Origin: Lytechinus pictus
Lineage: Eukaryota
NCBI RefSeq assembly: GCF_037042905.1
Contig: NC_087252.1
Span: 4,280,001 to 4,340,000 of the forward strand
Reading direction: 5' to 3'
Length of the DNA stretch: 60,000 nucleotides
The position numbers were made by a program, and so were the translations under genes. How positions within the stretch are numbered: the stretch's first letter is position 1; each line of letters opens with the position of its first letter. Shown here piece by piece: positions 36,370 through 60,000 of this stretch. The notes below the pieces were generated by a model that saw only the letters and a program-made list of their open reading frames with translations, was not told where the DNA came from and made no database searches.

Positions 36370-36907
36370 GGTTACACTTCGTAATTCCGAAGGTTCGTAA
36401 TTCCGAAACACGTAAATTGCCTTTACCTCGATGTTCGTTAATCCAAAAATGTAAAAGGGTTCGTTAATCCGAACATTTGTGGCGTTATTCCGAAGGTTCG
36501 TTATTCCGAAGGTTCGATAATCCGAAAACGAAATAAGGTTCGATGTTCCGAAGGTTTGTTAATCCGAAACGAAATAAGGTTCGATGTTCCGAAGGTTCGT
36601 TAATCCGAAAACGAAATAAGGTTCCTTAGTCCGAAAACGAAATAAGGTTCGTTAATCATTTCGTTTTTCGACTAACGAACCCTCGGAATTACGAACCTAT
36701 TTCGTTTTCGAATTAACGAACCTTCGAATCTCACTTCGTTTTCGGACAAACGAACCTTCGGGTCCGGGATTACGAACCTCATTTCGTTTTCGGACTAACG
36801 AACCTTCGAAATTACGAACCTTCGGAAATACGAACCTTCGGAATAACGAACCTTCGGAATATCCGAACCTGCGGAATAACGAAGCTTTGGAATTACGAAT
36901 GTATGCG
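36370..36907. mobile_element. Short foldback element with TTCCGAAGGTTCG tandem repeats
   Basis: Inverted arrays of TTCCGAAGGTTCGTTAA; TSD GTATGCAC; inserted in a Kolobok-family MITE related to 16838-17442. Confidence 0.75.
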
Positions 36908-39564
36908 GTATGCACACCCTTGTTAGGTATGCAAGTGAGGGGACTGATGACATCACCCATTCACCATTTCTTGTGTATTTTATTGCATGATATAATAACT
37001 ATTTTAATTTTCTCCTCATTGCATGTAAAGTAAACTTTTATTCCTCCTTACTTACTTGTATTTACTTATTTACATGCCATGTAAAAACATCATATTAAAA
37101 CAACAAAGTTTATAAGTTTGAGGCCATGCGTTTTATGTTGGGCCCGCAATAGGTGGTATTGTTACATTTGCACGACAAGCACAGAAATAATTAATGGTAT
37201 AAAACTTGAAATACATGTGCTACATGGGTATATTTGGTATCATATTGAAGGGAATTTTTATACCAATTACTTGAAAGAAAAAGAAATACTTGAGATTACT
37301 TCATTTACCAATAATTAGCAATTATGTAACATCAATTGTCCATTTTTGCATGGTGGTAGACGAGGGAGCATGACGAGGGGAGCAAAATTTTTTATTTCAT
37401 TAAGAAACTAAATGTGTAACATCACAGTACCTAAATATGTAATAGTTTGGGGGCTCACTGGATTATTCTTCAATCATAAGTGGGCCAAATTTGAAATTTT
37501 AAGTTTAAAGGATACCTAATTAAGCTAATTAGTATTATTAATTGATGTAAATCATGAAATTAACATGATTGGAATTGTGGCTGTCTGATGCATAGGAAAT
37601 GAGGAGAGATAAAATATAGTTGTGGATTACATCTTCTATAAAATTTAATAGAAGCTGCAAAAATTTCAAAAAGAAAAGCATAAACTAATTAAAGCCTTCA
37701 GAAATAAATCAATCTATTGTTAATTATGACCTCATGGTTTCAATTTTGACAGCGTAGACTGACAGTGGTAACTTTGATGTGTCCGAATCTTCAGATTATT
37801 CTGGTAACATAACATAGAAAATACACCTTTTATGCAATTGTAATTAATGAAAACTTTTTTGTAGCAATAAAGCCCTCATCTGATGCTATTTACTTGTTTT
37901 CTCAATGTTACATCACACTGCGTCTATGAATCAGTAGATGACACATATTTGGCTGGCACAAAGGTGTTCAGAGAATATTTTTCCAAATTATAAAAAAACT
38001 ACTTGAGAATGAAACTGATACAAAGATTACACTAAACAGAGGCAATTGTACCCATACAATGTGTTTTGTGCATTGACATTCAATTGAACCAGTACCAAAA
38101 GACCATGTCCTGCAGAAAGTCGAGCAAGAGGATATATTTAAAATATACTGTAACACTATAAAATAACACAATCAAAGTAGTTTTCCCAGGTGTATACACT
38201 GTATGGATTTGTTTATAACATGCTACATGTAGTTGTTTTTGTTTACTAAGTTTAAATAAGCTAAAGCAGTAATGAGAACTATTCATTGTGCATTTACATT
38301 TTTCCTATATTTATATGTTAAACCTGACTCTCAGTTGTCAATCTGTGGTCCACCGGTCTTTGAGCCAAGAGGTGACAAATCCCACGATTTGAGTCATAAT
38401 AAATCATTTTTTATTCATAATAACCAAACTAAATATATTATAATATACTAGTTAGTGTTTGCAAGTGTATTTATGCAACTAAAGGCATGACTACATAATA
38501 TTTTATGAGTAAATCAAGCATTGATACATATTTACCCGAAAAATTGTTATGTGAAATTTGGTCTCAAAAGATGATCGCGCCCAATTATTTTGGTAGAGTT
38601 ATCCCTAACAAGTTATATATCACTGGAAAGGAGGTCTCACTCTAAAGAGTTCAAATATGCATGTTATTTCCCTATAGGGTGTAAAGTTTATCTGATTCTC
38701 AGATTTATTCGGAAGTATATTTTTTCACAGTTTTCCACATACTTCGACCTTTAAATTTTTATGACATTACCCTATGTCTTTTCTGATTGCATTTTTGAAT
38801 TCCTCAGACAATTTCCTTTCAAAATATATATACTTTTATGGGTATAGGATGTCAAACATAAGAAAAAATACAATCGTATGAAATGGTGCGATTTTTGAGA
38901 AAAATTTGAGTTGTAACGGAAACGGGCCCAACTCAAAACGCATGACCTTTTACCCGTGTAACATTAACAAATTACAATACAATCTACATTTGGAAAATGA
39001 CAAGAAACATAATATTACTAACACATACACTCATTTCAGTACTTAACTGCAATAAAAAAAGAGGAATCAAGAAACTATAAAAAGTCATATACTTATTTCT
39101 TATCAGTAGATAAACGTAATTATATCGATACATTGGTAAACAAATTGTCATTAAAGCGATTAAACGTGACTATCTGTATGTTACAAAGATTATTTGCATA
39201 TTCGAATGTGCAGGTTAATGATTTACAAATTATTGATATTCTGAAAAATTAATAACTTGATTACAGCTGCAAACAACCGATGCAGTCATTTCATTTCTAT
39301 GATCTAAGCACTGTTCAATCTAAACTATATTGGATAAGGTCTGCAAGCGTCTTTGTTGATGAAAATTTCACGAACGAGAATTTCTTCATGTTTTTTTGTT
39401 CCAGATATCGCTCCATCAGTCTTTTGATTTAGCATCACGCAGAAATATCGAATGATGTTATTTCCAGCCCATTAGGAAGGCTCAATAAGGATACAGTTTG
39501 TAGTTGTTTATGAAAATGGACTAATGAATTGGTAGCCCTACTCGGGTCTGGGCCTGCTGCCAGC

Positions 39565-39610
39565 ATGTTGACTCCTTTGGTTTTCTGTTGGATGTTCGTC
39601 GGAGCAGCGT
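39565..39610 (+). CDS. Gene B exon 1: signal peptide
   Basis: gccagcATG; MLTPLVFCWMFVGAA followed by a GTAAGT phase-1 donor that matches the V exon. Confidence 0.7.
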
Positions 39611-42600
39611 GTAAGTGTCATTTATCTCCCTTGACAATACATTTTACTGTGGGTGCGGGTGGGCGGACGGGCGGGTGTGTGTGTTGCCTTTGGGGTGGCG
39701 GGAGTTCCTTCTTTTTTCTTTAAACTGTGCAATCTGATGCATATCTAAGGAGGATATTTTATACTAAAAATGTGCAAGCTGGGGCTACCCAGAAATCGGG
39801 GTACGCTTGTAACGATTCGACCAAACTGGAAAATAGCGCATAATTTTATGAAATCGGAAGAGTAACTATGAAAATATGCACGCCCAAAAAATCTTTGCAA
39901 ATAAAAAAAAAACATACTAACGTTATATTATATGCTACATTTCTTATTATCCAATAGTAGGAACAAAATACCCAGACATATGAAACAATGGAACAAAATG
40001 ATCAAGTATGGGAGGCAATGGTGTCGGTTTGTTTTGGCATGTTTGGTGATGGGGAGGTGATCATCGATATTTCCAGACACATGAATTTAAGGTGGCACAC
40101 AGTAATGGTTGGCCTATCATGATAATGACAGTTATTTGAATAAGGAGAGAGAGCCATTTTGAATAAGGAGAGAGTCATTTTGAATAAGGAGAGGGCCGTT
40201 TTGGATAAGGAGAGAGTCATTTTGAATAAGGAGAGGGCCGTTTTGGATAAGGAGAGAGTCATTTTGAATAAGGAGAGGGCCGTTTTGGATAAGGAGAAGA
40301 CCATTTTGAATAAGGAGAGGGCCACTTTGAATAAAGAGAAAGCCATTTTTAATAAGGACAGAGCCATTTGTAATAAAAAGAGTGTCATTTTGAATAAGAA
40401 TAGCACCATTTCGATTAAGAAGAGTGCTATTTTGAATTCAGAGAGAGAGAGAGAGAGCCATTTCGAATAAGGAGAAAGTCTCTTTTCATAGGGTGATACC
40501 AGATTTGAATAAGGAAAGAGTAATTTTGGATACTGAGAGAGCCATTTTGAATAAGGGGAGAGTCATCCTGGATAAAGAGAGGGTCATTTTGGAAACTGAG
40601 AGATTAGTTTGAATAAGGACAGGCCCATTTTGAATAAGAGTGATTTTGAATAGGGAAAGCGCCATTTTGAATGAGAGAGTGGTTTGAATTTATTAATAAA
40701 CCTCATTCACTATAAGACTTGAATATTTCGTTTTACAATGTATGCAAAAACAACATAAAAATAATTATCAGAGCTTATCGTATACAACAGTAATACGTCC
40801 TTTAATTTGTACGCATCATGAAATTTAGAATGATTTTCCAATTAATTTAAGGAAAATTAGATTTGTATATACTTCTATGTGAAAAAAGAAAACAATGTTT
40901 TGAAATATAACATAAGGAAAGTATGACATAATACAATATAACAAAAATTTGCTACTAAATTAATGAATTTTTAATCTAACTTTGTTGGATGCAACATTGA
41001 AGATCGATTTAAATACACCGCCTTTTAGTTAGGGACGAATCCAGGATGTTATGATCATTGAGGGGAGGGTGACGGGGGAATGAATCTAAAATCTTGGGAG
41101 AATATTTTTGGCGGCGTATAGGCAAGGGCGGAAATCTCTCCCCAAATGTAGAGGGACCAGAGGCTGGAAAATTTGACAAGCAAAAAAAAAAATAAAGAAA
41201 AAAAGGTTATCACCCCAAATGTAAGGTCATTTCGAACGAAATAAATTTTACAAGCAAAAAAAAAGGTTATCATCCCAAATGTAAGGTCGTTCTGATCAAA
41301 ATAAATTTGACAAGCTTAAAAAAAGGAGGGGGGTATTACCCATATTTTTAAGGCAATCTTAAATAGATGTTTCATTTCCATTTTAGGTGATCTATTTCTT
41401 TCCATCATAAAATACCAAAAAATAGTAAGGGGATATTTGGTATTGTGTCCCCCTACTATTTTGGGTAGGGGGACGCGTCCCCCCCCCCCCCCCGCCCTGG
41501 GATTTCCACCCATGCGTATAGGCCCAACTGGCATAACGCATCAGGATCAGGTGGTCACTTCTAATCAATTGATTGGCAATAGCTTTATCACGTGAAGTTG
41601 TTTTAAGCTAATATAAAAATTTGCTTATGACTTTAACGGCTGGTTCTATTTGCCGGTATTAATGTTTTGGATGAAAATGTTTCTTTTTAGACCAGGATCC
41701 ACTTCACTATTTTGTAAAACATTATGATCCCGATTATGATAATCTTATTTTGATCGGGCGTGTTAGAACTGCTACAGGGGTCAAGTTAAACCGCATACAT
41801 TCGTAATTCCGAAGCTTCGTTATTCCGAAGGTTCGGATATTCCGAAGGTTCGTAATTCCGAAGGTTCGTTTATCCGAAAACGAAATGAGGTTCGTAATTC
41901 CGAAGGTTTGTTAATCCGAAAACGAAATAAGGTTCGTAATTCCGAAGGTTCTTTAATCTGAAAACGAAGTGAGGTTCGTAATTCCGAAGGTTCTTAATCC
42001 GAAAACGAAACGAGGTTCGTAGTTCCGAAGGTTCGTTAGTCTGAAAACGAAATGAGGTTCGTAAGTCCGAAGGTTCGTTAATCCGAAATCGAAATAAGTT
42101 TCGTTCATCCGAAGGTTCATTAGTCCGAAAACAAAACAAGGTTCGTTAATCCGAAAATTAAATAAGGTTCGTATTTCTGAAAATGAAATTAATTCATTTT
42201 GGTAACAAAAACGATGTTGTCCTTACAAGATAACAGGATATTATGCAATAATAGTTATAACGAACGATGATACACGTGTGTGTTGTGGTCAAAGCATGTA
42301 TTGATTTAAGAATAGGCGCCCGGATCAAGCATACGCTTAATTACGATTCTATCTGAGCAATTGCTGCCCAAGCAAATGGTTTAAAGATGCAGGGGATTAA
42401 GTGTGTTGGTCGCGTGCGAGTAACCTCCAGATAATAGGATTTGTATTGGAGGGGATGTCATTTTTAATAAGAGCTTCTGCTGGTAATAAAATAAAAATAA
42501 TCCTAATGATGATCATAATAATCCCAAACGATGATCATAATAAAAATGGTGATAAAGAATATAAATGTTAATAAAATTATATTGATCGTTACGCCTAGTG

Positions 42601-45600
42601 TAACAATTTTTAATCCGTTTTTCATGATTACAAAAAATGCTCGGAATGTTTACTTTTTATGTGGTAGTTGTGGCCCAGTGGATTAGTCTTCTAACTATGA
42701 AACAGATGGTCGTAGGTTCGAATCCCAGCCATGGCGTAATTCCTTCAACAAGAAATTTATCCACACTGTGCTGCACTCAACCCCCGTGAGGTGAATGGGT
42801 ACACGGTATGAAGAAATTAATTAAATGCCTTCCTTTGGGCGCCTAGCTAGGCAGCCCAGCTAATGCCGTGGTAATAATAATAGCAGGGCCCACTAGGAGA
42901 ACAGTTTTCAGAACTGAAGTGACTACCCTTGGTAAATAATACCATTATTATTATTATTATATTATTATTATCATGTCTTATTAGGCCTACATGAAATCTC
43001 CAAAGTTTGAGCTAGTGATTCGCTCGCAATATCTCACAAGGATGCCCCAGTAATTAGGTCCATAATTGACCAAAAAGCGAGTTTTATAACTTCAGATTTG
43101 ATTTTTTTCCAAACCACTTGCTCGCTACGCTTGCTTGCGAAAATAAAACCTTAATATTTATCTTATCAATCAAAAATAAATTTAAAAAACTTTGCTCAAC
43201 TCAATTAATGCCAATAAATCCAACTTTACACAAATGATAATCTTATGGTGAAAATATCCGTTTGCACCAAAATGCCCGTTTTGGCATATAAGTGCACCTT
43301 TTTTGGCTTCCCCCAAAAAAAGGAAAATACGTTCCGCCGGCCTTGGTTGAAACATGTATCGTCTTCATGGCTAACTGCAAAAATCCTTTGACATGTCCTT
43401 TTTAGATCAGGTCAGAGCTTACAATTAAAATTTCTGTTCGCGCTTCTTGCTCGCAGCTGTTATCTAGTTATATAGCCATCTTGTTTTGAAGATCACAAAC
43501 ATATTGCCCATCACATTTTCAACAAAATATATAGCTCGCGCTTCGCGCTCGCATTATTTAAAAAGGGTTTATGATATTATTACATATTTACTTTATTTTA
43601 TAAGAATATAGCTAATTATAGGCTGTTAGGACTACCCTTTCAAAGAAATAAACAAAAATCAACTTTAAGCTGCTGATCGGGGAAATTATGGGTGAAAAAA
43701 AATTCGCCTCCCAACTATTGGCGAAAGTTGGATCCGCCAGGGGGAGGGTAGCAGGGGGCACTTGCACCCCCCTAAAAAAAAATTACAGGGAAATGCTATT
43801 TGTGCACAATGGTAAATTCCCTTTTTTCAAAATAAATACTCTTTTTAAAATATACATTTTAGATTAATTTTTAGGAGAAGCTCTTATTAAAAATGACATC
43901 CCCTCCAATACAAATCCTATTATCTGGAGGTTACTCGCACGCGACCAACACATTTAATCCCCTGCATTTTAAACCATTTGCTTGGGCAGCAATTGCTCAG
44001 ATAAAATCGAAATTAAGCGTATACTTGATCCGGGCGCCTATTCTTAAATCAATACATGCTTTGGCCACAACACACACGTGTATCATCGTTCGTTATAACT
44101 ATTATTGCATAATATCCTGTTATCTTGCAAGGACAACACCGTTTTTGTTACCAAAATGAATTAATTTCATTTTCGGAAATTTGAACCTTATTTGATTTTC
44201 GGATTAACGAACCTTATTTCGTTTTCGGACTTATGAACCTTCGGATTAACGAACCTTATTTTGTTTTCGGATTAATGAACCTTCGGAATAACGAACCTTA
44301 TTTCATTTTCGGATTATCGAACCTTCGGAATAACGAACCTTATATAGTTTTCGGATTAACGAACCTTCGGAACAACGAACCTTATTTCGTTTTCGGTATA
44401 ACGCCACAAATGTTCGGATTAACGAATCCTTTTTCGTTTTCGGATTAACGAACATCGATGTATAGGCAATTTACGTGTTTCGGAATTACGAACCTTCGGA
44501 ATAAAGAACCTTCGGAATTACGAAGTGTAACCAAGTTAAACGTCATTTGTTTTTATCTTCGTCTACAGCATTTAACCTTTTAACCGAGGAATCAATTACA
44601 GCAGTGCTTGGGAGAAACGTCTCGCTTCCCTGCAGTTTCTCTGTTCCTGTACTTGCAGTTTACTGGTATAAACATGAGTTCAGTGGAGCTCCAGACGATG
44701 ATGCAATACTCATTGCAAGTGACTATATGGGATTTACAGATCCTATACCAGGTTTTGAGCGGTTTAGAATTGGAGACGACTATAGATTGGTGATAAACGA
44801 TGTCTTGCTTCTCGACGAGACAACCTATTCATGTATTGTTGTACCTCACCACTTTGACAATCAAAGAGGATATACCGACCTGAGGGTCATAGGTAAATGT
44901 AACAGTTTTTAAGAAATATTTATACAATTTTCTTATCTGTAAATAAAGGTTTGAGCACTGAGTGAATTTTTAGTTGGCCCTGTTACCAAAATGTCAGGTA
45001 AACAAGTCAAGGGGGTATGATTATCTGAAAAAAATTAAGGCGAAAATATCACATGCAAAATGTCAGAGAAATCGTAATTAGAATGTTCAAATAAGAATGT
45101 ATGAAGGAAATTTTGAAGGAACATTTTCTGAGAGAAGATTCCTTGGGGAAGGTGTCATTGGTTAAACATGTCAGCTTTATAAATTAAAAAAAAAACTATA
45201 ACAGAATTACATGTACGTTTTTTAATTCATCTCAGTTGAAGGCAGGGGCGTTACGGGGGTCGATGGCAGGGAGGGGGGGGGGGGCAAGAGCCAAACATTT
45301 CCCTCTCATATCATGTGAACATAATTTCGACGAATGTACGCGAGCATCAGCGAGAAGCTCTATGCGGGAGTAGCGTGGTGAGTAAAAAAAACTGACGGTG
45401 CATCGATCAGGTGTGCGAAAAGTTTCTTAATCAAAAGTCCCGAGCGAACAAAGCGAGCGCGACAAAAAAAGTCCACCTTCTTCTTACAATCTTATATAGC
45501 TCTTGACATGATACTCAGATAAATAACATGTTTTACACGGTTCCTTTCTTTTATTTCTTTTCGCCTTTTCTTTGTTGTTCTTGGTCGTAAAACTTTTGGG

Positions 45601-48600
45601 GCCGAAGCCTTCCGTTTGTACGCCAGTACTACTTGGATGGAGTCTGGGTGCACACCTCTTGAGATTCAGTCATTTTCAATCAAAGATGACCGATATTCTT
45701 AACGAAATCCCGGGTGCACATGTAGGTTAAACCAAAAAAAAATATTACTTCAACGCAGTGGCGTAATAAGCCAAATATTTTGAAGGGTACAACAGATGGT
45801 GAATGTAGGGAAATTTCTAAGACACGGCGAGCGAATGAAGCAAGAGAGAATTTTTGGCATTTAAAAAATGAAATTCTGGCCTAGCAAGGGATAAAGCCAA
45901 TGCATGGGCGGCATTGACTGCGTCCGTTATAGAAATTTAGCAAGCCTATAATAATATACTTCATAAACAATGTCATATGCCATCCCATTCTTTCTTCACG
46001 TTCTGTATTTCTAATCCTCGACAGCCCCTCCGTATTCTAAATCCACCTTTTTCCCTTTTGTTCATTTTTTCAGTTTAGCTTTTCCCCTAGGATTTCAGCA
46101 AAATCTATTCTACATCATTTCCTGTTTCTTTTTGGATCTTTTCTTTCCCTTTCCTGCAATGAATACCCGTTCCATTTTGCCATCTCTTTTCCCACTCATT
46201 TATGAGTAATTTGGGATGCCTTGTCCTTTCTCACTAGTCATGTTCTTCTTTCCTTTCTTTTTACCTTTCTACTCTTTATGTTATTCATTTACCTTTACTT
46301 TTTCCCTTTTCATTTCCTTTTTTTTTCCATTTTCCCTTTTTTCATTTTCCCGGCGATAACGCAGGCCATCCTGGGGCCACCCCCACTTGAAATATTGTGG
46401 GAGATATACCCCCCCCCCCTCCCCTGTGATCAGCATCCATTAATGACATACACACCCTCTCAATTTTTTTGCTTGATAGCTTTAGCTAATCCACAAGTAC
46501 CAATTATATCATCATGTGAGACTACTGAGCCAGGTAGATGCTCCTTTATTATTGAGGAGGACGAAGAAGGAGTTACACTTGACTGCAATATTTATAATGC
46601 CCGACCTCCAGCAAATGTGACGTGGACGAGCAGTGATGGCAGTGTGAAGAACAATACAGAACAACAAATTTACGAGAAAGATGGGGTTTTCAACATATCA
46701 TCACAGCTTTGGGTATGTAGCCTTTTTTGTTATCTACGTTCAAAGTTTGAGTAAAGGTAAATATGTGTAATCTACGATACATATCTATTCATTTATCGGT
46801 TTTAATTATTTTATACTGCAGGGTAGGCCTGTTCAGTTATGCAAAACTGCTTTCCAAAGGCGCTTCAACATCATAGCAAATCAATGTATGTAACATATGA
46901 TATAGTAAAAACAGAAAACATTATATACATATAGAGTGAAATCAACAATTACTCATGGAATCATTACATTTAGATCAAGTTATTCAGTTTAATTACATGT
47001 ATGACAGTCAGAATTTTAATGATTTACAGTGTTTTTCAAATGCATGGAGGGACGTGCATTTTGTGTATACAATGGAGAGAATTAAATACGACGGCAGCAA
47101 CATATTCAAAAGATTTTCTTTAATAATCTGCCAGCGTATTGGAAGGGGACATAGTTCAGAATGTCGTGTTTTATAAGTTACATTACGTTTGCAGATAAGG
47201 CTAAATCGTTTTGTGTTTTGAAAGCAAGAACACAAAATTGATATTTGATACGTTCCTCCACTGTTTGCCATTTGAGTGTAGACAACCATTCATGTTGGGG
47301 AGTAAGATAGTCCTTATTCAAAATTATTCGGGCATACTTATTTTGCAGTTTTTGTATCTTATTTTTGTACAATAATCAATGTAAGGTAAACTCATGCCAA
47401 AATATAAATTCTTATGAATTTATATCTGAGAGCAGGACATTTTTAAGCAGCATTTACATTCGTGAACATTTATCCGGAACTTAATGAATAATAGGAGCGC
47501 GAAGCGCGATTTGATTTTTTAAAATTATCTTTATCTCAACGTGGAGCGTTGTGGCCCAGTGGATTAGTCTTCGGACTTTGAAACAGAGGGTCGTGGGTTC
47601 GAATCCCAGCCATGGCGTAATTTCCTTCAGCAAGAAACTGATCCACAGTGTGCTGCACTCAACCCAGGTGAGGTAAATGGGTACCGGTAGGAAGTAATTC
47701 CTTAAAAAGCTGTGTGCGCTATGAACGCCTAGCTTAGCCGGGTAATATAGGAGCGCCTTGAGCACCTAACAAGGTGGATATGTGCGCAATATAAATACCC
47801 TATATTATTATTTATCCTTCTTCGTATTATAATTATTTTTTTTTTCAAATACTACTTCTACTGCTACAGGTACTTCTTCTATATTTTTCTTCTCCTCCTC
47901 CACCTCCTGCTCGTCTTTGTCCTTCTTTTGTCTTGTTTTTCTTTTTTTCTTCTTCTTTTTCTTATACTCATCTTCCTCCTTCTTATTTTTTCCCTTATTT
48001 CTTTTACTTGTTTTACCCCCGAACCCCGTTTACTGTTTACTGCTGTTTAAACATAAAAATCATAGGCTAAGTACTATTTTAATATTACTTAAATTCTTAT
48101 TCAATATTGTATTTGAATATTCGGTCCTATTCCTTGTTAAGCGAGATAGTATTTAGGGGTACGATTAGTTATGCCAACACTCTGGAAAAAGGGATTAGTG
48201 TTCGCTATATTTTTGTCAATTTGTAGGTAAGCCCATTAACATGTAAAAGTCACAATTTAAAAACACACTGCTCATTTAAAAATTGTGTACCTGGATGCTA
48301 TCCCCGTTAACACAAACGCATCATAAAAACATAATTATGCTAGCTCAAACCTATGGATATATTTCTTAAGTATTTTTTTTTTCTAAATGTATGGCCTTAA
48401 TATTAATTAAACATTTTTTGCATAAATTTTTGCTATTATATTTTGAACATGTAATTTATATGTACATGTGCGTTTCTTTCTTGGGAACATTATCAAATAT
48501 CTTTTTAAAGCCTAAAGAGAACATTTTTTTAAACAATTTCAAACAGTTCAGACGCAACATTATACAAAAATATTCATAATAAATATAACGTCGTATCATT

Positions 48601-51600
48601 GCTTTAAAAACAAATAAATGGAGAACAATTTTGAAACCTCTTGGAAGTGTTTATTAACATTATTTTCTAGGTGGGTACATCGTTCGTTCGCAGATTGTCT
48701 TTTCACGTCGTATAGAAGTATAATATCGCTCTTTAAAGCAGTGAGAGCCAGAAAGTACTGGAGAGTGGGATCTAAGATGAATTGAATAAATGAATAAATA
48801 GATAAATGAAATGAAATAAAATAAATGTAATAAAATGAGAGTAATATAAATGATTACATGGCGGTCCTTTTCTACTGAGGTCAATAATAATGTCAATAAT
48901 TAATTTCTTTTTCGACTGATGTCATAACAACGTTTTCATTGATCCTAAACAGGTATCAATAAATGAAATAGGAGAGGATTTCGTATGCGTAGCTACTGGT
49001 GAAAGTGTCAATGGCACGTCAACGCTGGTGGTGACTGTCAAGTATTTGCCAGGTACGTCATATCTTGATATTTCGTCAAATTAATGATGATTATATAAGA
49101 CAGCTATACAGAATTATGACACATTACTTATGTTACTTGCTCGAATAAACCCTTACCCCTATATTTACATTATTGTGAACCAAATACTCTTTTGCAATCG
49201 TAACTATAACCATATGTCATCTAAGACCGGAGCTATTGCTGCAGTAGAAAATGCCGTATCACCTTTATTTTGGGGGACGAAAATTATCTTAATTTCATGG
49301 TGAACCATTTATTTATTTTTTAAAATAAATATTTATTTATTATATTTCTTTGCTTGTCAATTTCCTTTTCTTGCTTGTCCAGTTTAAACCAGCATCCCTG
49401 TAAAACTAAAAATCGTTTCCAGGGCCCTGGACAAATCCCTCCCTTGGAAAAAAGCTAAATCCGCCCCTGTGTAGGATTCGTTCTGTATTGGCTTCATTTC
49501 AATCGCTATATTTAGATAAACGTGTAAGTCTTCAGCACAAATTACCTTAATGTTTTGCATATTTAAAGCAGTGGTAGTTCTAATGTATATCTATCTATCA
49601 ACAGAGATTGGTCTATCAAGCGGAAGTACAGCTTGGATTGCAACAAGCCTACTTTTCTTAGTCATTATTGCTGTGCTTACCATCGTCTATATTCTTCGGA
49701 AAAGTGAGTTCAATTTTCAATTTAAAAATGAAATGAATGAAGTTTCTCGGTCATCTTTGAAAATATATTTGAAATGAACTATTTAAAGAAATTTGAAAGG
49801 ACATCATTTCAGTTTATCTTACATTCAAATTTATTTTGATTATAACATATTTTAAAAGGCGGCCGTTACTTAAACATTTTGATTTGTTACATCAGTATTG
49901 GTTTTAATCTTATTAAGATACCTAAAGTTCTGTCAAACGGAATTTTCAATATCGACAGAAGGAGAGAGAGGAGAAAAGTCAAGGAGCTTGGACAATATAT
50001 ATAACTAGGACCATCGATTCATATTTCCATCGACAATGGGGGCGAAAGTAAAACAATACACATGTATTTATGTATTGAACTTTTCGGAACGCTTTGTGTG
50101 CCAAATTGTAATATAGAATTACAATTTTGTAAGTTCAACTACTATTTTTATGCCAAGCTTAGTAGGGTTTTTGTATATTTATTTACATTTTACATATTAT
50201 GAATTGTTTTGTTCAAGTTGTCAAAATGATGTTTAGGGCAAATAGATATGTTTGCGCCAATATTTCCATTAGGGTTATCCTCCCCCTCCCCCCCCCCCCC
50301 CACGGATGTATTCCTCTGGATATGAACAGTATTTAAAGGTAAATGCCAGTTTTGGTAACGATATCAAAATGAGTTCGTACAGAATCCAATGAAATGACCA
50401 CCAAAGTGTATGTTTGTATAAATAAAGAATGTGCTAAAGGATTCTGGAAGAAATTGTGTAATTGCTGAGAAATTAGCAAATAAGCACAGGGGTCAAGCGT
50501 CGGGCACGACATTCAAAGCAATAACAACACACTGTCCCACGTGCGCTTATCTGTGTTGGTGATCTTCAGTGTGAATATTTTTCAGCGTATATTTCAAGAT
50601 TTCACAAAGTTCAGTTTATGTAACTGTACCAGATCTACATCCTCGATGATATACTGACAATTAAGCCTGGTTTTACAGACTTTCTCATGAATCAGTGTTT
50701 ACTGCAACTACTGGCATTTCTCTTTAAATAACATAGATTTAGATATAGCCTAGATTTATGCGGTAATGGGTTTGCTCCTCAGAAATCATGTCTCCGCTCC
50801 ACAAGGGTTCGCAATCCTTGGTTCAATGAGGAAATCCTTACTGCGCATCAAGAAAGAAGACGGATTGAACGGAAATGGATCAAAAGTTCTTCAGACACTG
50901 ATCACACATCTTTTAAGCTAGCTAACAAGCATGTTAACGACCTCATAGTTAAGGCTAAGCAAAATACTATACGGAGTTACTCTGTAAAGCCAATGCCAAA
51001 ACAGTTTAATTTAATGTTGTTAATAATCTGCTCCACAAGAATGTTAAATTTCTCCCTGTGTATGATAATCCTCTTGATCTAGCAAATCGTTTTTCTTTGT
51101 TCTTTGTCAAGAAGATAAGTGATATCCGCAACAATGTCACAAATACACCTGAACCAAGAAGTGTAGATAGTCAAGAAGTCAGTTCTTTTCATGAAAGTAT
51201 GTTGAATTGTTTTGAAGTTGTCAGTGAGGATAATATCGAACGCATTGTGAGCAATATGTCTAATGCCACTTCTTTAACAGATTCTCAACCAATTGCAATA
51301 TTCCTTCGCTCATTATCATCGGGTACATTTCCAGATGGTGTTCATCAGGCTATAGTGACACCAATATTCAAGAAAAAACAATCTGAATAAAGACACATTA
51401 TGTAATTATAGGCCTGTTAGTAATATTTCACATATTGCTAAAGTGATAGAAAAGGTAGTATCAATTCAACTAACAGAACACGTAAATTATAATGGTTTAT
51501 ACGATCCAATGCAGTCAGCATATAGATCCCATTTCAGCACTGAGACAGCCCTTTTGATATTGCAGAATGATGTTCTTTCATATTTTGATCAGCATAAGTG

Positions 51601-53110
51601 TGTTTTCTTCGTCACATTGGACCTAAGTGCAGCTTTTGACACTGTGGATCATACCATACTACTGAATCGCTTAAAATCTCGATTTTACATATCTGGTCTA
51701 GCTCTTAAATGGTTTAAGTCTTACCTGACTGGTTGGTCATCTAGGGTAAGCATAGCCGGAGAGTTGTCTGACCCGTGGGTCACTGAGTTTGGGGTACCCC
51801 AAGGGTCAGTTATCGGGCCGATTCTGTTTAGTTTGTATATCACTCCCATCTCTGACATTATCAATAAACATGGTCTACAGTATATTTGTTATGCAGATGA
51901 TGTACAACTGTATTGTTCCTTTGACCCGCGCTCTTTTGATAACATAAATAAAACACTTGAGAAAACCTCTTTTTGTATTTCAGAAATAATTAGGTGGATG
52001 TCATCTAATTATCTCCAGCTGAATAATACCAAAACTGAATTCATAGCTCTCTGTTCTTCTGCCCGCCATCTGCAATCAATATCACATATTCAGCTTAATG
52101 TTAATGGTCAATGCATCCCCATCTCCACTAAAACTTCTGTTCTTGGAGTATGCATTGATAACATGTTCACACTGTCTGCTCAAGTAAATCAGGTTGTCCG
52201 CAATTGTAATTATCATCTCAGCAATTTGTGGAGGATTCGTAGATTCATTGATCTTAAGACATGTCACCGTGCTGTGCGAGCACTTATTCTTTCTCGGGTA
52301 GATTACTGTAATAGTTTATATACTGTTTTGTCAGCTAGAGATAGAAGAAAACTTGAGGTTATTCAGAATCGTGCCGCTCGATTAATTTTTGGCTTTGGAT
52401 CCCGAACTCATACTACACCCCTACTTAAGAAACTCCACTGGCTACCTCTATTCCAAAGTATTCAGTTTAAAGTCTGTTTATATGTATACAAAACTCTAAA
52501 TCATCTAGCACCTGAATATTTTAATAATACCATCAAATTATACACACCATCTCGTAATCTTCGTTCAATCACTGACACATGCAGACTTTACATTCCCTTG
52601 TCAAAACTCTCCTCTGCCGAAAAACGGTTTGCTGTAGCAGCTGCCAAGACTTGGAATACTATCCCTCTTTCAATAAGAAATGCTTCCAGTGTTCTTGGCT
52701 TCAAATCTTCCCTTAAGACATACCTTTTTCCTCAATAATTAATTTCCCTTTTTATCTTGAATATTGTAGTAATTATTGCAAATGTTAAATTGTTATTCCT
52801 ACATTGTACGCGCTATGGTACTTTTTGTTTTTAGCGCCTCTAAATACCCATTATTATTATAGGCAGTTCAACAATTTCTTTTCAAAATATAATCAAAGTA
52901 ACAATACATATTCAATATAATACAGACAGATCAATGAAATTTCTTAACAAATGTTGAATATAAATTAAACAAAACTACAGTGTGTTGCAATAATTTTATC
53001 TATGAAAATAATGTAGAAATGAACGGAGGGACTTGCCAAGAAAAGCAAAAACTTGTAGAGAAGGCAAGCCCCTAAACTTAGTTTCAATACTAATTATAAA
53101 CTATATATGT

Positions 53111-53179
<69 letters not shown>

Positions 53180-54782
53180 TTTCTTTTTAGGTGAATTATG
53201 AAGAACAAAATTAAATATGTGTTTAAGAACTTAAGAATGATTTAACATGTTGATTTTTTTATAACGTCTTCATATAGGAAAGAGGCAAGATCAATTAGCG
53301 GACCTAGAAGATGAGCTCCTGCCCTTAGTAGCCCCAAAACAGGGTAAGACTCATTATTTTGAATATTTATATATTTACATGGAGGCCATTATAAAATAAA
53401 ATGTATGTAAAACGTATCCTAGATTTTTTAATGGGGGGGGGGGGGAGCTAACATGTTACCGATCGAATCATGCATTTATTCGATTGTCGTTTACTTCGTA
53501 CCTCTGGACAGCGCCTATTCCCTTCACATGATTATAACATATTATACAGGGGTTGATCAAGCTTTTGCCTAAGGGGGTATAATTCATACACATTTTCTCG
53601 AATTGGCCGCTATAGCTAATTTTTGTTGGATTTGAGAGGGCAGGGTTGAAAATAACAGAGGTAATAAATGACAGAGGATAAAAATGGCAGAGTCATCTCT
53701 GCTACTTGTACCTCTGCTATTTTTTTACAAAAATGTCCAGCTCGCGCTACGCACTTGCATTATTTAATTAGCTAGGTATATATACTCTTTATTCATTGAA
53801 GGGCAGGTCACCGAACAAAAAATATCAGTTTGAATAAAAAGAAAAAATCAAAGAAACCTAACTGTACACTGATATCCCATCGAAATCCGATGTAAACTAA
53901 GACAGATTTGACATCACACTTATTATCACACACATCACGTCATATTATATTAAATATAAGCATTTATTTGATGGAAATTTGTATTGTTTACATGTAATAA
54001 TTGTGCGAAAAAAATCAGAGACAAGTTACCTCTAGGATATGTTGAAATTATGAAACTATCCGCTGATATATTTTCTCGTCATTGATACGAGGGAAAACAT
54101 TTCAATGCTTTTTGCGTGATATTTTCCCTCGAAAATGCTCATTACTGACTGCAATACGTTATTAATCGTTGGTGCATAAGGCATGCGTCACACTGACCAT
54201 GATTCCTACTGGAAATACAAATATGGACAATTTCGAACTCGGGTAGATATTGGGGACCATTTCATGAAAGTTGTTAGCACTGCATGATAAGCTTTCTTTC
54301 TCTTAATAACAATCAGAGACAAGTACTTGCCTTCTGGGCCAATCTAATGTCAAGAAAATTATAAGCGTTGGCAGTTTCATCATTGCTGACAACTTTCACG
54401 AAACGCCCTCTCTGAGATCGTTGGTATATCTGAGGTCGTTGGTATTGCCAATTAGGTTCACTTCTTGTCACACCAATTACAGGTATGCAACAGTTGACCG
54501 AAACCGACATACTTGACGTGACACATGAAACAAACCTAGATCACGGTCAACTGAGGAATTTACTGACTGAACTTCATATCGAAGCAGCTGATATGCTTAC
54601 TGAAAAGGACAGAAATACACGTGCGAGTGATCTAAAGCTCAAGGCATTCCACGTCCTGTGCGTCTGGCGGAAAACCGAGGGCATCAACGCCACCAGAGGG
54701 ACATTGCGTAATGCGTTACACAAGTGTGGATACATTGAAGCACTCGGGATCTTGGATGAACGATGGGGTCTGAACTCTCAAG
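39565..54782 (+). CDS. Gene B: type I membrane receptor (signal peptide, IgV, IgC, TM, Death domain); 3' end uncertain
   Basis: Exons 39565-39610, 44569-44892, 46480-46712, 48953-49052, 49605-49703, 53278-53343 and 54483-54782 splice in frame (389 codons). The last exon ends at a GTAAAT donor, so further exon(s) are expected. Confidence 0.85.
40137..40680. repeat. 21-bp minisatellite (GAATAAGGAGAGAGCCATTTT)n
   Basis: More than 20 degenerate tandem copies in gene B intron 1. Confidence 0.9.
41792..44532. mobile_element. Foldback/MULE-like element with ~690-bp TIRs
   Basis: Same termini as the 36370 copy, in inverted orientation; 9-bp TSD AAGTTAAAC; 41792-42480 is inverted-repeated at about 43880-44532. 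Confidence 0.8.
42660..42970 (+). mobile_element. tRNA-derived SINE
   Basis: gtggcccagtgg A box, ggttcgaatccc B box, conserved core and (TTA)n tail. Confidence 0.8.
44569..44892 (+). CDS. Gene B exon: Ig V-set domain
   Basis: GRNVSLPCSF...VYWYK...RFRIGDDYRLVINDVLLLDETTYSCIV...TDLRVI shows the canonical B-strand C, C-strand W and DxxxYxC. Confidence 0.92.
46480..46712 (+). CDS. Gene B exon: N-terminal part of Ig C-type domain
   Basis: ALANPQVPIISSCETTEPGRC...VTLDCNIYNARPPANVTW...DGVFNISSQLW; phase-0 GTATGT donor. Confidence 0.9.
46800..47372 (-). mobile_element. 3' fragment of a CR1/L2-group LINE
   Basis: KIQKLQNKYARIIL...LSTLKWQTVEERIKYQ is a typical post-RT C-terminal region. Confidence 0.65.
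47541..47812 (+). mobile_element. Full-length tRNA-derived SINE
   Basis: GGAGCGTTGTGGCCCAGTGG A box, GGTTCGAATCCC B box, core gctgcactcaacccaggtgaggtaaatgggtacc and TATTATT tail. Confidence 0.85.
48953..49052 (+). CDS. Gene B exon: Ig F/G strands
   Basis: VSINEIGEDFVCVATGESVNGTSTLVVTVKYLP; cag acceptor, GTACG donor. Confidence 0.85.
49605..49703 (+). CDS. Gene B exon: transmembrane helix
   Basis: EIGLSSGSTAWIATSLLFLVIIAVLTIVYILRK; GTGAGT donor; basic stop-transfer residues follow. Confidence 0.88.
50337..50723. mobile_element. Kolobok-type MITE
   Basis: TTAA TSD; AGGTAAATGCCAGT / ACTGGCATTTCTCT TIRs. Confidence 0.7.
50760..52860 (+). mobile_element. 5'-truncated L2/CR1-group LINE (reverse transcriptase, frameshifted)
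   Basis: ORF 51443-52738 has QSAYR..STETAL, DLSAAFDTVDH, GVPQGSVIGP and YADD; upstream frameshifts; (TTA)n 3' tail. Confidence 0.92.
53100..53176. repeat. (TA)n microsatellite
   Basis: Direct reading. Confidence 0.95.
53278..53343 (+). CDS. Gene B exon: juxtamembrane linker
   Basis: RKRQDQLADLEDELLPLVAPKQ; 66 nt, phase 1-1, GTAAG donor. Confidence 0.75.
54483..54782 (+). CDS. Gene B exon: Death domain
   Basis: LTETDILDVTHE...LRNLLTELHIEAADM...LKAFHVLCVWRKTEGINATRGTLRNALHKCGYIEALGIL fits the Death-fold pattern L..W...G..AT...L..AL...G; 300-nt phase 1-1 exon. Confidence 0.85.
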
Positions 54783-55699
54783 GTAAATGTAATCATAAAC
54801 ATTTTATCTGTAGGAGGATAAATATTCAAACTTGGTCTAGGATTTGAATTTGCAAAGATAGGCCTTGCCCGAATTCAACCTCCATGCTATTTGCAGAATT
54901 CAGCTTTTGGCACTATCACATACTATACATTTCGTTGGCGTTCATCCGAACCGTCGTATCATTCGATTTTGGTCGAAATATCAATTTTGAGGTTTTTCAA
55001 AAAATAAAACTTCATATGGGGATTTTTAATTTGGGTATGTCAAACACAAAATGCGCAAATATCCCATTGGAATCATGTACGTGATAGCAATGTAAACAAT
55101 GGTTGCGCGCAGTTTAATACGCGGTCAGCAAGCTTTCGACTTTGCAAGTGAAATAGAAAACAAAATTGTCAGATAAATCATTTGTATCCATTAATATGTT
55201 TCTATAACTTTAGAGATTAATTGCATATGAAAAATTGTCAGTTTGAAGTAAGACTAGCAAGTAAAGGTTTGTTCTGCTATTCAAGTAGTTTCGATGAATT
55301 ATTGTTGCAACACTGAATTTAAGAGGGCGCTTCATCCAGCTGCTGCCCGCTGCACAGATTTTTGATGTTTTCATGAATCAGATAATAAGGAATGTAGGAT
55401 ATGTTTCAAACTGGCTTGGCTGTTTTTTATAATTATGTACTCTTAGCAGTGCTGTTTTACAGAAGAGTACATCCTTTGGAGTGCCCACAATGAGTTAAAA
55501 GACTATGGCTTGAATTATGAGATTGACTAAGGGTCTTATAAGGATTAACACATTTGAGTAGAATCTTAGCTCATTGTCATCACTTCTCAGCAGTGGCGAC
55601 AAAGCACTCCTAGTATATAAAGGACTAGTCCCACTTGCCGACGGACACAAAACGTATTCATAACGGAAACAGAGGACAAGCACAATTTCGGGGTGGCTC

Positions 55700-58015
55700 C
55701 ATCCGTTTTCATTCGATCCAGACAATGGACAAAATGGGCGAACATGCAATGGAATGTGAACGGATGCTCGATGGATAGAGCGTATGTCACACGTATGCAA
55801 AGAGGACACAACGGATACATAACGTTTTCCAACGAATGGCAAGATTCTTTTCCGTTATACATCCTCTCTGCATCCGTAAGTGCAGTGGGACCAAGCCTTA
55901 AGATCGATCCTTTTGAATTTGACAGCTTCATCTGCATACTGAATCAGATACCTGGGAAGCTTATTCTCGTTGGAGATTTAAACGTCCACCATGATTGTCC
56001 TAAGATATATGGTGTTAAACAGATTGAAGATATTCTGCAATACTTAATCAATACATGTATAAGCCAACCCACAGACTATTTCACACGTTGGATGTAATTA
56101 TAGCAAGAGAGGATGAGAATTTTCTGTGTTCCTTAATAAGGCCACCGCACACCTTACGACTGGTCTCCGACCCGATTTCAGAATAAAATGTAATAGAATT
56201 TGATGCTAATATTGAGACTTGGAATAAGTTACTGTGTAATGTTCGAAATCATCGTACGAATACCTATGATCAAATTTGTGACTATGCTATCATCATTCTT
56301 AGAATAAAAGCGAATTTAATATCTAGTCGTAATGACGTCATAGCAGTCTTACGATTGGCTACGATTTGAAACTAATTTGGACTTTACTCCAAAATAAGGG
56401 CTTGCAATTTTTCAAAATTGTTATAATATAATTATTTCAATTAATTCTAACCTCAAATAAAATGATATGTTCCATTCACATCTTCAGATAATGAGCAAAA
56501 CGTGATTTGTTCCAAAATCGGGTCGCAGATCAGTCGTAAGGTGTGCGGTCGTCTTGTCTGACCATGTTTGTAAGATGAACAGTCCGAGGTGAAATACCAT
56601 CAGCTGATGTACAATCTAGAGAGTATCGAAAGTTTGGCAAATGAATCATTCGTCATTTGCCGAGGATTTCTACTACTTACTTGACAAAGACTGTGTTACC
56701 GAGGATGTTAACAGTTGTGTTCAAACCCTGGATAGGGATATTGATAATCTCCTTGATGTCCGTGATCCGATTCGTACCCTCACCGCACCTGTTTATCACA
56801 GACCGAGATAGTAATGAGGAGGTGCATGTAGCAACGTGTGAACGTCGGAGACATGGGCGGAAATGAGGAAAATCCTTGAAGAGCAACACAGGCAGTGATA
56901 AAACGGCCTTCAAAGATGCTAAAGCTGCTGCAGTTGAAACATTATATCAGGCCAAACGTCGTATTATCATGACCTCTTCGTTGAAAGTGGCCCAAAGGAC
57001 ATGTGCAGAGAACTTAATGATCTTTTGAACACAAACAAACGTTGTCTTAGGGATGCACATTCACCTGCTATGCCAGCTGCATCTTTATGCAGATTCTTTA
57101 AGGAGAAGATTAGTAACGTGAGGAATTTTTTAATCTCAATGTCAATGCTCTGGAAGTTTCGAGTTTCAAAGATAGAGATGTTCCCTTACTCTCAGATCTT
57201 CGATTAGTTACAGTGAAAGAAGTCCAGAATATGATAAAATGTTCTTAAAATAAAACAAGTCCCTTGGATCCTCTTCAGACATGGTTGCTGAAGCGTCACC
57301 TCCATTTTTTTCTACCCAAGCTGACGCATATTATCAACACATCGCAGACAGGTGAATTCCCACAATGTATTGGAGTTGCATCAGTGGTGCATGTACTTAA
57401 AAGAAGTGACTCAATGAAATAACAGGCCTATCCCAAACATCAGATTCCTCGCTAAGCTTCTTGAAAGATTGTCTCGGCCCAACTGTTGGATCACATTGAT
57501 GATAGCAATTTTGGAGACTCCAAGACAATTTGCATATAAAAGGAATCACACTTCTGACACAGCGTTTGTTAGTCTGCAGAACAATATTATTTGCGTTCTT
57601 GATAATCGAAAGTGTTTCATTTGTTTTCGTTGACATGTCATTTGATTTTGACACCTTATACCACAACATTTTGATGAAAAGGCTTCAAGATGACCATGGG
57701 GTTACTTGTAGAGCACTGAGCTGGCTAAAGTTCTATCTCATGGGACAAGTATAGAATTTGAACATCGATGGGGAGAAGTCAACTAACACTATAGAGGAGT
57801 ATGGTGTTCCACGGGGATCAGTAATGGGTCCACTGCTGTTTACGATGTACTCAAAGCAAGTATCTGACATTCTCCACAGATGTGGAGTAGACTATCATGT
57901 ACGTGTATATGCTGATGACATCCAACTTTTCCCGAAGATTGATCCATCAATAATGGACTATATTGACTGCAAAATGCACATTTATACAGGTCGTGCAAGA
58001 ATTTCAAACATGGAT
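55700..58015 (+). mobile_element. Highly degenerate L2/CR1-group LINE (APE and RT remnants)
   Basis: LILVGDLNVH (APE); FDTLYHNILMKRL, YGVPRGSVMGPLLFTMY and YADDIQL (RT); many stops and frameshifts; interrupted by a MITE and a Gypsy element. Confidence 0.8.
56139..56554. mobile_element. MITE inserted in LINE remnant
   Basis: About 38-bp TIR accgcacaccttacgactggtctccgacccgattt / aaatcgggtcgcagatcagtcgtaaggtgtgcggt. Confidence 0.7.
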
Positions 58016-60000
58016 TGTTATGTTTTGGGGTTCATCCAGCCTAATAATGACAAATTAAAGTCTCCAGTTTTGCTTAACTCAAAATGTCTGTTGACTCTTT
58101 ATTGCTCCTTCATTGTACAGTCTCTCTGTGTGTGTTGTACAATCTCCACTTATGCATGTGTATACATAATACAGATTCATACATGTTGCTAGTCTGTACA
58201 TGCAGACCTTATTACACATTTATGTTATTCTTTACATTCAAACCTTCATATATAACATTCCTCCCCCTTACATAAATGTACATGAGTAATTTTTGAAATA
58301 TAACAATTTCCACTGTCGGTGTTCCATGCAATTAAGGAATTATAATTTCAACCACTATTTCACTTCCATACTTCAACTTGCAACATTTCATGTAAGAAGT
58401 TTTAGTTATTTGGCTTCAAATTTCTCAATCCTCAGTATTCTGATTTAAAATAATCTCTGCAAAGTGTTCCTTACACTTGTATGTAATCAAACTTTCTGTT
58501 ACAATTGTAAAATATAACACAACTTTAACAAAACATATATGCCAAGTTACAATTAACACCTTTTTTCTTTGCTGTTACAAAAACTAAGTCCACATTTTGA
58601 ATTCTTCCTTACTGTTATCCAAAATGCAAGTCATTTTGGCTTGTACAATTCTTATCTTACTTTATGTTAATACCAACATAATCATACATTTCATGAATTA
58701 CTGTCAGTTGCAAGACACATTACAACATATTACATTTTTTTTTTTGGTACATCTGGAACTAAGTATAAGGCAACCTTTTACTTTTGTACATAACAATTGA
58801 ACCAAATATTTTACTTGCAGAAATACACCACATAATCCTGAAATCTTGTTGGTGTGCTCACATTTCTACGAGACATTCGTCTTTCTGGTTTTGTGTCTAT
58901 GTTTTGTGGCATATTTTGTTTTGTTTCTTTTGTATTTTCTTCATTTGTTTGTGTTGTTTCACTTTCTGGAGCATTCTCTGGCTCTGGATTAATGTCAGGC
59001 ATAAGGAACACAACTGGTGGTTCCTCTGGAGGTTCTTCTGGAGGTTGGAACTCCTTCCTCTCACTGTTGGCATGTTCACTGGATGGAAAATACTTCCTCA
59101 TCTGGTCAATATGACGGCGGACAACTCTACCATCTGTTAGTTGTACATTGTACATGACTTCATTGATAACTTCAAATACTGTTCCATAAAGCCATGTTGT
59201 ACCTGAGCTGAAGTTTTTGACCATCACTTGATCATTTACAGCAAAGACCCTTTCTTTGCTTCCTCGATCTCCTGTTTTATTCATGGTAGACTGTTTCCGT
59301 CTAGCCGATTTGCTCAGATCTGGACGCAAATTGTCGAGTCTTGTGCGGACTTTCCTCTTGAACATCAGTTTACTGGGCGTCTTTCCTGTTGTTTCCTGTG
59401 GAGTGACTCTGTAGGTCAACAAAAACCTTTGAAGTTTCTTTTCCAAGACACTTCCTTGTCCCTTCTTCATTGCTGTTTTGACAGTTTGTACACCTCTCTC
59501 CGCAAGTCCATTGCTGGCTGGGTGCTTGGGTGCTGTCTGGATATGGCAAATGTTGTTGTTGTTCATCAGAGTGGCAAACTCTTCTGAAACAAATTGTGTG
59601 CCACTGTCTGTCACCACGGTCTCTGGTAATCCATGTGTTGCAAACAACCGTCCAAGGGCAATCACTGTGGCATTGGCTGTGGCTCGCTTCACACTAATAG
59701 CTTCGAGCCATTTACTGTGCGCATCTACGACGATCAAGATATTCTCGTCACCAATGGAGGCATAATCACAATGGATCCTACTCCACGGCTTCTCAGGAAA
59801 CTCCCACGGGTGTATGAGTACTGCTGCTGGGCTGTGCTGATTCTGTTGACAGCTTTCACAACATCTCACGTGCTGTTCCAACTGGTTGTCTATATTGGGC
59901 CACCATACGTACGACCTGGCTAGTGACTTCATTTTCACGATCCATGGGTGCGTACTATGTAACTCATTCAGGATTCTCTCCTTCATTTGTAGGTTATCAG
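58016..60000 (-). mobile_element. Gypsy/Ty3 LTR retrotransposon, 3' part (integrase, PPT, 3' LTR)
   Basis: Integrase with HHCC and DDE motifs; minus-strand PPT AAGGGGGAGGAA (58258-58269) adjacent to LTR 58016-58257 bounded TGTTAT...ATAACA with an AATAAA inside. Confidence 0.88.
58811..60000 (-). CDS. Gypsy pol integrase domain (partial)
   Basis: LHSTHP...CESC zinc finger; IHCDY, VTDSGTQF and SNGLAERGVQT catalytic core. Confidence 0.9.
   Translation of the reverse strand, partial: DNLQMKERILNELHSTHPWIVKMKSLARSYVWWPNIDNQLEQHVRCCESCQQNQHSPAAVLIHPWEFPEKPWSRIHCDYASIGDENILIVVDAHSKWLEAISVKRATANATVIALGRLFATHGLPETVVTDSGTQFVSEEFATLMNNNNICHIQTAPKHPASNGLAERGVQTVKTAMKKGQGSVLEKKLQRFLLTYRVTPQETTGKTPSKLMFKRKVRTRLDNLRPDLSKSARRKQSTMNKTGDRGSKERVFAVNDQVMVKNFSSGTTWLYGTVFEVINEVMYNVQLTDGRVVRRHIDQMRKYFPSSEHANSERKEFQPPEEPPEEPPVVFLMPDINPEPENAPESETTQTNEENTKETKQNMPQNIDTKPERRMSRRNVSTPTRFQDYVVYFCK

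Follow-up and report, generated by a model that had tools for sequence, protein, structure and literature searches.

Splicing joins a sea urchin Death-domain exon to a giant GVIN/VLIG GTPase, probably behind an Ig-type transmembrane front end

A 60,000-nucleotide stretch of the Lytechinus pictus genome, hereafter the window, contains seven in-frame exons for two Ig domains, a transmembrane (TM) helix and a Death domain (Table 1). We find that splicing connects the last of these, the Death exon, with a GVIN/VLIG GTPase exon that lies 30.7 kb further on, outside the window. The first-pass annotation of this DNA had noticed the Ig-TM-Death order and proposed either an Ig-type death receptor or the front half of a membrane-anchored NLR, with its NACHT exons lying past a block of transposons. 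Its expectation that the gene extends past the Death exon, with a large phase-1 exon on the far side of the transposon block, holds (that exon begins at 85456); the partner, however, was misread, being a giant GTPase and not an NLR. Our favored reading, which we hold with moderate confidence, is that of one gene coding for a membrane-tethered, single-pass Ig-TM-Death-VLIG receptor of 2,830 aa, likely a surface receptor with a built-in effector, in a family of Ig receptors whose tails are interchangeable.

Table 1. Features of the Ig-TM-Death-VLIG locus. Window: G000:C8:4280001-4340000; positions above 60000 continue the window numbering.
Feature	Position	Strand	Support or remark
Exon 1, predicted signal peptide, aa 1-15	39565..39610	+	by hydropathy, KD19 1.69
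Exon 2, IgV, aa 16-123 (C37, W48, C104)	44569..44892	+	Pfam V-set E=1.1e-8
Exon 3, C-type Ig first part, aa 124-201 (C159, W172)	46480..46712	+	Pfam C2-set_2 E=1.5e-5
Exon 4, C-type Ig end, aa 202-234 (C213)	48953..49052	+	
Exon 5, TM helix and basic stop-transfer residues, aa 235-267	49605..49703	+	KD19 peak 2.8
LINE reverse-transcriptase remnant, intron 5, outside the protein	51359..52735	+	RVT_1 E=1.4e-32
Exon 6, cytoplasmic linker of 22 aa, aa 268-289	53278..53343	+	phase-1 donor GTAAGA
Exon 7, Death, symmetric phase 1-1 module, aa 290-389	54483..54782	+	Pfam, PDB matches, two RNA-type contigs
Intron 7, first 5.2 kb (inside the window)	54783..60000	+	
Terminal exon proposed in the first-pass annotation	55463..55530	+	open reading only; without RNA or homology support
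Terminal exon of RefSeq P0001, 24 aa, in a repeat	56488..56561	+	possibly a short isoform or an artefact of the model
Gypsy-type integrase frame	58811-60000	minus	
Exon 8, single-exon GVIN/VLIG GTPase, aa 390-2830	85456-92780 (G000:C8:4365456-4372780), outside the window	+	RNA joint, Pfam
Parts of exon 8: MACPF-like region (~aa 500-800), URGCP domain, GTPase domain			

The seven window exons are genuine. They have GT donors throughout and AG acceptors in exons 2-7, stay in frame with phases 1,1,0,1,1,1,1, and together give 389 residues that match residues 1-389 of RefSeq model P0001 exactly. Both the V-set and C2-set_2 matches lie above the Pfam cut-offs, and a single hydrophobic segment (~aa 244-266) is seen in the seven-exon product as well as in the whole 2,830-aa model. 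Pfam, hydropathy and the identity with P0001 bear out the order V-set, C-type Ig, TM and Death. The hydrophobic N-terminus expected of a signal peptide is also present, as judged by hydropathy, and the ectodomain has five N-glycosylation sequons. The donor of exon 6 is of the same type as that of the linker exon in an upstream sibling gene. The LINE and Gypsy block is likewise present, as indicated by the RVT_1 match and a Gypsy-type integrase frame. In RefSeq, P0001 is labeled 'nectin-2-like [Lytechinus pictus]'; however, nectins have three Ig domains and a short tail that binds afadin, whereas this protein has two Ig domains and a tail that opens with a Death domain.

The Death exon is 300 nt long and ends in a phase-1 donor, as had been described. 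Its Pfam Death match is weak (E=0.005, below the cut-off), and its top sequence matches in the PDB are the death domains of THOC1 and RIPK1 (E 6e-4 to 1e-3). Dozens of Death domains in the database match it and define a large family. In P0069, P0083 and P0133 domains of this family occur internally with the same Gly-Met start; hence, the Met of exon 7 need not be a start codon. The genome itself yields one further match to the exon, a weak one.

The evidence for the downstream joint comes from four contig sets (X1, X2, X3 and X4) compared with the Death exon alone, of which X4 is, by our guess, a probable RNA run, and from 200 kb of DNA beyond the window. The second X4 contig (depth 3.9) follows positions 54746-54782 without a difference, leaves the exon at its GT donor and continues for 255 further letters. 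The first 30 letters past the donor agree at 27 of 30 positions with the 30 bases that follow directly on the AG at 85456, which is the sole match in the whole genome at up to three mismatches, as it is in the 450 kb searched around the locus. The joint falls exactly at the donor and the acceptor across an intron of 30,673 nt, as expected from splicing. It is seen in one contig from one of the four runs, and in an allele differing from the assembly; X1, X2 and X3 yield no contig there, a result that does not amount to evidence of absence. At the position where RefSeq sets the start Met of the VLIG protein the X4 allele has Ile, which fits 85456-92780 being an internal exon. The joint also has a counterpart in another species: P0159 (XP_041471828.1) of L. 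variegatus has a Death domain 55% identical to that of exon 7, followed by a VLIG part with a homologous junction, and is the only one of 24 VLIG relatives with a Death-first architecture. In a quick tree, built from the C-terminal 1,500 aa of 19 proteins, P0159 falls in another VLIG clade, and the Death-VLIG module is therefore probably older than this locus.

Exon 8 supplies 2,441 codons from an enclosing open frame of 2,446 codons (85440-92777) with a phase-1 acceptor, and the eight exons joined give 8,493 nt coding for 2,830 aa with no stop. This exon has the sequence hallmarks of the GVIN/VLIG family: a URGCP domain (PF25496, E=4.5e-68) and a VLIG-type GTPase domain (URGCP_GTPase, PF25683, E=2.9e-124) in a single very long frame of ~2,400 aa, with the GTPase motifs G1-G3 (GxxxxGKS, RCT and DTEG) intact and aligned with those of relatives. 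Over its first 700 aa the urchin VLIG is ~26% identical to a bat GVIN. Other VLIG matches in the genome lie at 23.6-26 Mb on the same contig (C8), and there are two VLIG exons on C9, near which, in 200 kb, no Death exon of the exon-7 family was found. RefSeq holds two versions of the VLIG gene, XP_054761083.1 and.2 (P0152 and P0151), which are 74-89% identical along their length and ~80% overall, with both frames whole. This suggests that they represent very different haplotypes in which selection has kept the frame open.

Against this background, we considered whether the assembly might be a young or decaying chimera devoid of selected function. Some features point that way: the VLIG of exon 8 has lost the invariant residue at 25 of 384 positions, compared with 10-18 for four relatives; it lacks ~150 N-terminal residues that P0159 keeps; exons 4-5 are covered, by our estimate, to a depth of roughly one read across three raw RNA runs; and non-synonymous changes are in excess in the Death exon of the X4 allele. 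In the latter, the 16 listed of 21 differences affect 14 codons, of which 12 are changed non-synonymously and two silently, with no stops, a pattern that fits relaxed as well as diversifying selection and does not indicate constraint. However, a stop-free 8.5-kb frame with intact splice sites and GTPase motifs, together with a second version that is 20% different and equally whole, makes a decaying chimera quite improbable. A far weightier competitor, and the main one, is that two genes are present: a short-tailed Ig-TM protein whose end lies at exon 6 or beyond it, and, independent of this, a cytosolic Death-VLIG GTPase with a 5' exon of its own or a repeat-borne promoter. It turns on the joint between exon 6 and the Death exon, which no read or contig shows among the RNA runs and contigs compared with the locus; over 39000-58500 the runs X21, X22, X23 and X2 are swamped by repeats, with no exon joint among the 15 listed joints (571 more exist). 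The first X4 contig, the sole one over the 5' part of the Death exon, covers 54491-54773 with 21 differences in 283, and is preceded by 37 foreign letters, 21 of which match a dispersed repeat with at least 40 copies; no copy of this repeat was found in the intron between exon 6 and the Death exon. These letters could stem from a 5' exon, brought by a repeat, of a distinct Death-VLIG transcript, from a rearrangement of this allele, or from a chimera. Two genes would also accord with P0159, whose annotation begins at the Death Met and includes neither Ig nor TM; with read-through from exon 6, which meets a stop after 17 codons beside an AATAAA; and with the database, where none of 173 relatives combines Ig and VLIG in one protein (one of the 173 has Ig with a weak Death match). 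On the other hand, the joint in the first X4 contig lies 8 nt inside the exon rather than at the acceptor and its allele is 7% different, so that a rearranged or chimeric sequence may underlie it; AATAAA is common in the window (1.5 per kb); and from the consensus phase-1 donor of the linker it is only 1,139 nt to the next in-frame exon, the Death exon, whose acceptor is intact and which RefSeq joins to exon 6. The sibling-like donor of exon 6 and the internal position of such Death domains in other proteins also favor the join. Taken together, we regard the join of the Ig-TM part to the Death exon as likely, and give the two-gene alternative a smaller but real chance.

The remaining alternatives concern what follows the Death exon. 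In one, the gene would mainly yield a short Ig-TM-Death protein of ~410 aa, a receptor signaling through an adaptor, with the VLIG join being minor or allele-specific. RefSeq P0001 does end in this manner, and the transposon frames that fill the 30.7-kb intron could trap transcripts. However, the terminal exon of that model sits in a repeat, the sole joint observed from the Death donor leads to VLIG, and the Death-VLIG junction is shared with P0159, which together render this rather improbable. Among proteins of 241-2000 aa, only P0001 of 227 candidates was found to have a Death domain of the exon-7 type (the 2,830-aa fusion exceeds this range), and none of 38 candidates of 85-272 aa was a short TM-linker-Death protein. 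The weak terminal exon that the first-pass annotation had offered does exist as an open reading, but it lacks homologs and was set aside. Neither this exon nor the terminal exon of P0001 appears in RNA, although a short-tailed form may occur as an isoform. The other alternative is the membrane-anchored NLR itself, with the Death exon joined to a NACHT exon. The search beyond position 60000 that had been suggested for a phase-1 NACHT exon did find one, starting at 134265 on the same strand, 79 kb downstream, and Ig-TM-NACHT relatives exist in Diadema (P0029 and P0039). Nonetheless, the RNA joint goes to VLIG, and the VLIG exon with its stop codon lies between, on which ground the Death-NACHT join was rejected. 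Moreover, 11 kb in front of the NACHT exon lies another Death-like exon (~122709-122968; a weak Pfam Death match, E=0.03) with a matching phase-1 donor, so that the NACHT exon reads as part of a separate Death-NACHT-LRR gene. With VLIG rather than NACHT at the observed joint, we consider the NLR interpretation highly implausible.

Returning to the single membrane-tethered receptor, its likely architecture can be set against several known systems. It resembles the death receptors of the TNFR and UNC5/p75 types in being single-pass with a cytoplasmic Death domain; however, its ectodomain consists of IgV and IgC domains in place of the cysteine-rich repeats of the TNFR type, it lacks TSP and ZU5 domains, and its Death domain is not terminal. 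P0159 shares its Death family and the homologous junction but has no annotated Ig or TM part and belongs to a different VLIG clade; the accession numbers adjoining the L. variegatus orthologue P0162 revealed no Ig gene. To our knowledge, no family of interferon-type GTPases is less well understood than the GVIN/VLIG proteins. The only functional GVIN study that we found, a preprint, describes soluble human GVIN1, modeled from a 1,808-aa frame, as coating cytosolic bacteria; it proposes dimerization and polymerization for these coats, the dimers being modeled only (10.1101/2025.03.24.645074). Relative to human GVIN1, the urchin gene has a Death exon spliced in front and, likely, also an Ig ectodomain and a TM helix. 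Closer to home, the sea cucumber proteins AjNLRC4 and AjNLR-new are likewise echinoderm membrane receptors that unite Ig domains with a normally cytosolic immune NTPase; there, however, the NTPase is a NACHT rather than a VLIG, and the descriptions consulted include no Death domain (PMC8699970, PMC13133943). For AjNLRC4, the Ig part is reported to bind microbes and drive phagocytosis, with two TM helices (PMC8699970), and for AjNLR-new the opposite topology is reported (PMC13133943).

The N-terminal part of the VLIG protein looks MACPF/perforin-like, on sequence evidence that is weak to moderate. One of 19 VLIG members, the relative P0161, has a Pfam MACPF match above the cut-off, whereas exon 8 itself has none in Pfam. 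The ESM Atlas gives MACPF feature clusters with a score of 0.97, and a nine-sequence profile run against the PDB has pleurotolysin B as its top match (E=0.022), aligned over the signature motif. The MACPF signature takes the form (Y/F)G(S/T)H...GG, and a YGSH...FGG at aa 671 corresponds to it and is kept in all 19 aligned VLIGs, including those of bat and vole. On the other side, phmmer of the region against the PDB returned nothing relevant, a genome search with the MACPF family gave three matches among 16 candidates, with exon 8 not listed, and the single-sequence AlphaFold models (pLDDT 38 and 46) are too poor for judging a MACPF fold. The newer Pfam families found on VLIG proteins (PF26771-PF26773 and PF25974) may already name this region. 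As to the literature, none of the matches listed, drawn mostly from outside the subscription journals, deals with a VLIG that has a TM or Death part, or with a MACPF in GVIN; one paper, PMC8875540, contains both GVIN1 and MACPF, and the words MACPF, perforin and pore do not occur in the main text of the GVIN1 preprint (10.1101/2025.03.24.645074).

These features allow a tentative proposal for how such a receptor might operate. With two Ig domains outside the cell and the Death domain, the predicted MACPF-like domain and the GTPase inside, the Ig domains may recognize a ligand of microbial or other non-self origin, either on the cell surface or within a phagosome, by analogy with what is reported for AjNLRC4 (PMC8699970), and ligand binding would cluster the receptor. 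Clustered GTPase domains could then dimerize and polymerize on the membrane into a membrane-bound GVIN coat, in the manner proposed for the coats of human GVIN1, while a death-fold adaptor would dock on the Death domain and the MACPF-like domain would come to lie beside a membrane that it could damage. In its full form, we put this forward as speculation: a surface Ig receptor whose tail is a complete effector, uniting a Death domain with a functional, perforin-like pore domain and a GVIN giant GTPase, in which ligand binding directly assembles a membrane-damaging coat, and with full-length GVINs generally, including those of rodents and bats, possessing an overlooked MACPF domain. If true, the membrane-tethered Ig form would link sensing of the outside to the GVIN machinery and provide a handle on how the latter is triggered, and a MACPF-like region common to mammalian GVINs would suggest a route to membrane damage.

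Finally, the front end of this gene belongs to a family in which the tails vary. The IgV exon has 27 matches in the genome, 11 of which, besides itself, are close and lie on the same contig, and the closest sibling ectodomains are 40-51% identical with the same exon plan. Two upstream neighbors have P-loop GTPase tails of the P0179 and P0009 type, here labeled IFI44-like, Pfam giving only MMR_HSR1. Three copies at 5.3-5.45 Mb have P2RX7_C tails (P0005 type), other siblings have coiled-coil tails (P0003 and P0007), and the Diadema relatives mentioned above combine the same front end with NACHT tails. Near seven of the 11 IgV paralogues, in the stretches at 5.1-5.46 and 8.2-8.46 Mb, there is no Death exon of the exon-7 family; of the other four, two lie within the 450 kb around the window and have different tails, and two are at 5.52 and 5.58 Mb, outside the stretches covered. 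None of the sibling IgV-IgC-TM genes has a Death or VLIG tail within the regions examined. Given a shared front end with varied tails and a Death exon nearly unique in the genome, the simplest history is probably one of exon shuffling, in which the Death-VLIG module was placed behind one copy of the Ig-TM front end. The public annotation splits the locus into a 'nectin-2-like' protein and a stand-alone GTPase and so masks this joint architecture. The locus thereby offers an example of exon shuffling in echinoderms in which a single Ig-TM front end is found with at least five kinds of tail.

The MACPF-like region, the predicted perforin-like part of the VLIG front, is retained together with its (Y/F)G(S/T)H...GG signature motif in alignments of the full-length bat and vole GVINs (P0168, P0169 and P0170; residues about 165-495). 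By comparison, the human GVIN1 frame, as modelled in a preprint (bioRxiv 10.1101/2025.03.24.645074), is approximately 600 aa shorter than these full-length mammalian proteins. Among echinoderms, the VLIG of the sea cucumber Holothuria leucospilota (P0157/P0181) is a short-branched neighbour of its sea-urchin counterparts in a quick tree of the last 1,500 aa of 19 proteins, with 56% identity across the first 700 aa; this closeness may reflect strong conservation or else transfer. Within L. pictus itself, two single-exon VLIG copies on another contig are convergently oriented, with no Death exon found near either, and the reading frame of the forward-strand copy is interrupted by a stop once 2,188 codons have been read.

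A separate gene downstream combines a Death-like exon, a NACHT frame of 540 codons and LRR-like exons. Relatives of the ectodomain include an upstream sibling with a P-loop GTPase tail, and a second IgV-IgC-TM/P-loop GTPase gene is located approximately 20-39 kb 5' of the window. In three further tandem genes, the tails match the cysteine-rich domain found on the intracellular side of P2X7 (P0005, Pfam E=8e-17). A 2-kb stretch immediately 5' of the IgV exon is bracketed by a tandem-repeat element present there in inverted copies, and nested LINE and Gypsy remnants occupy much of the 30.7-kb Death-to-VLIG intron.

Related genes and repeats (window positions, or genome coordinates where prefixed G000)
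Feature	Position	Strand	Protein
IgV-IgC-TM sibling, P-loop GTPase tail	260-22040, on upstream to about -9246	+	RefSeq P0179, 541 aa
Tandem-repeat element, further copy	near 36300-37000		
Tandem-repeat element, inverted copies	41800-42200 and 44180-44530		
Nested LINE and Gypsy remnants	57400-60000, on to about 77000		
Death-NACHT-LRR-type gene	G000:C8:4402709-4424526 (L009-L011)		
Three tandem Ig-TM genes, P2X7-type tail	G000:C8:5340000-5450000 (L056-L066)		P0005
IgV paralogue, frameshifted V exon	G000:C8:8335032-8335359	-	
Single-exon VLIG copy	G000:C9:9796855-9804120	+	
Single-exon VLIG copy	G000:C9:9839767-9847053	-
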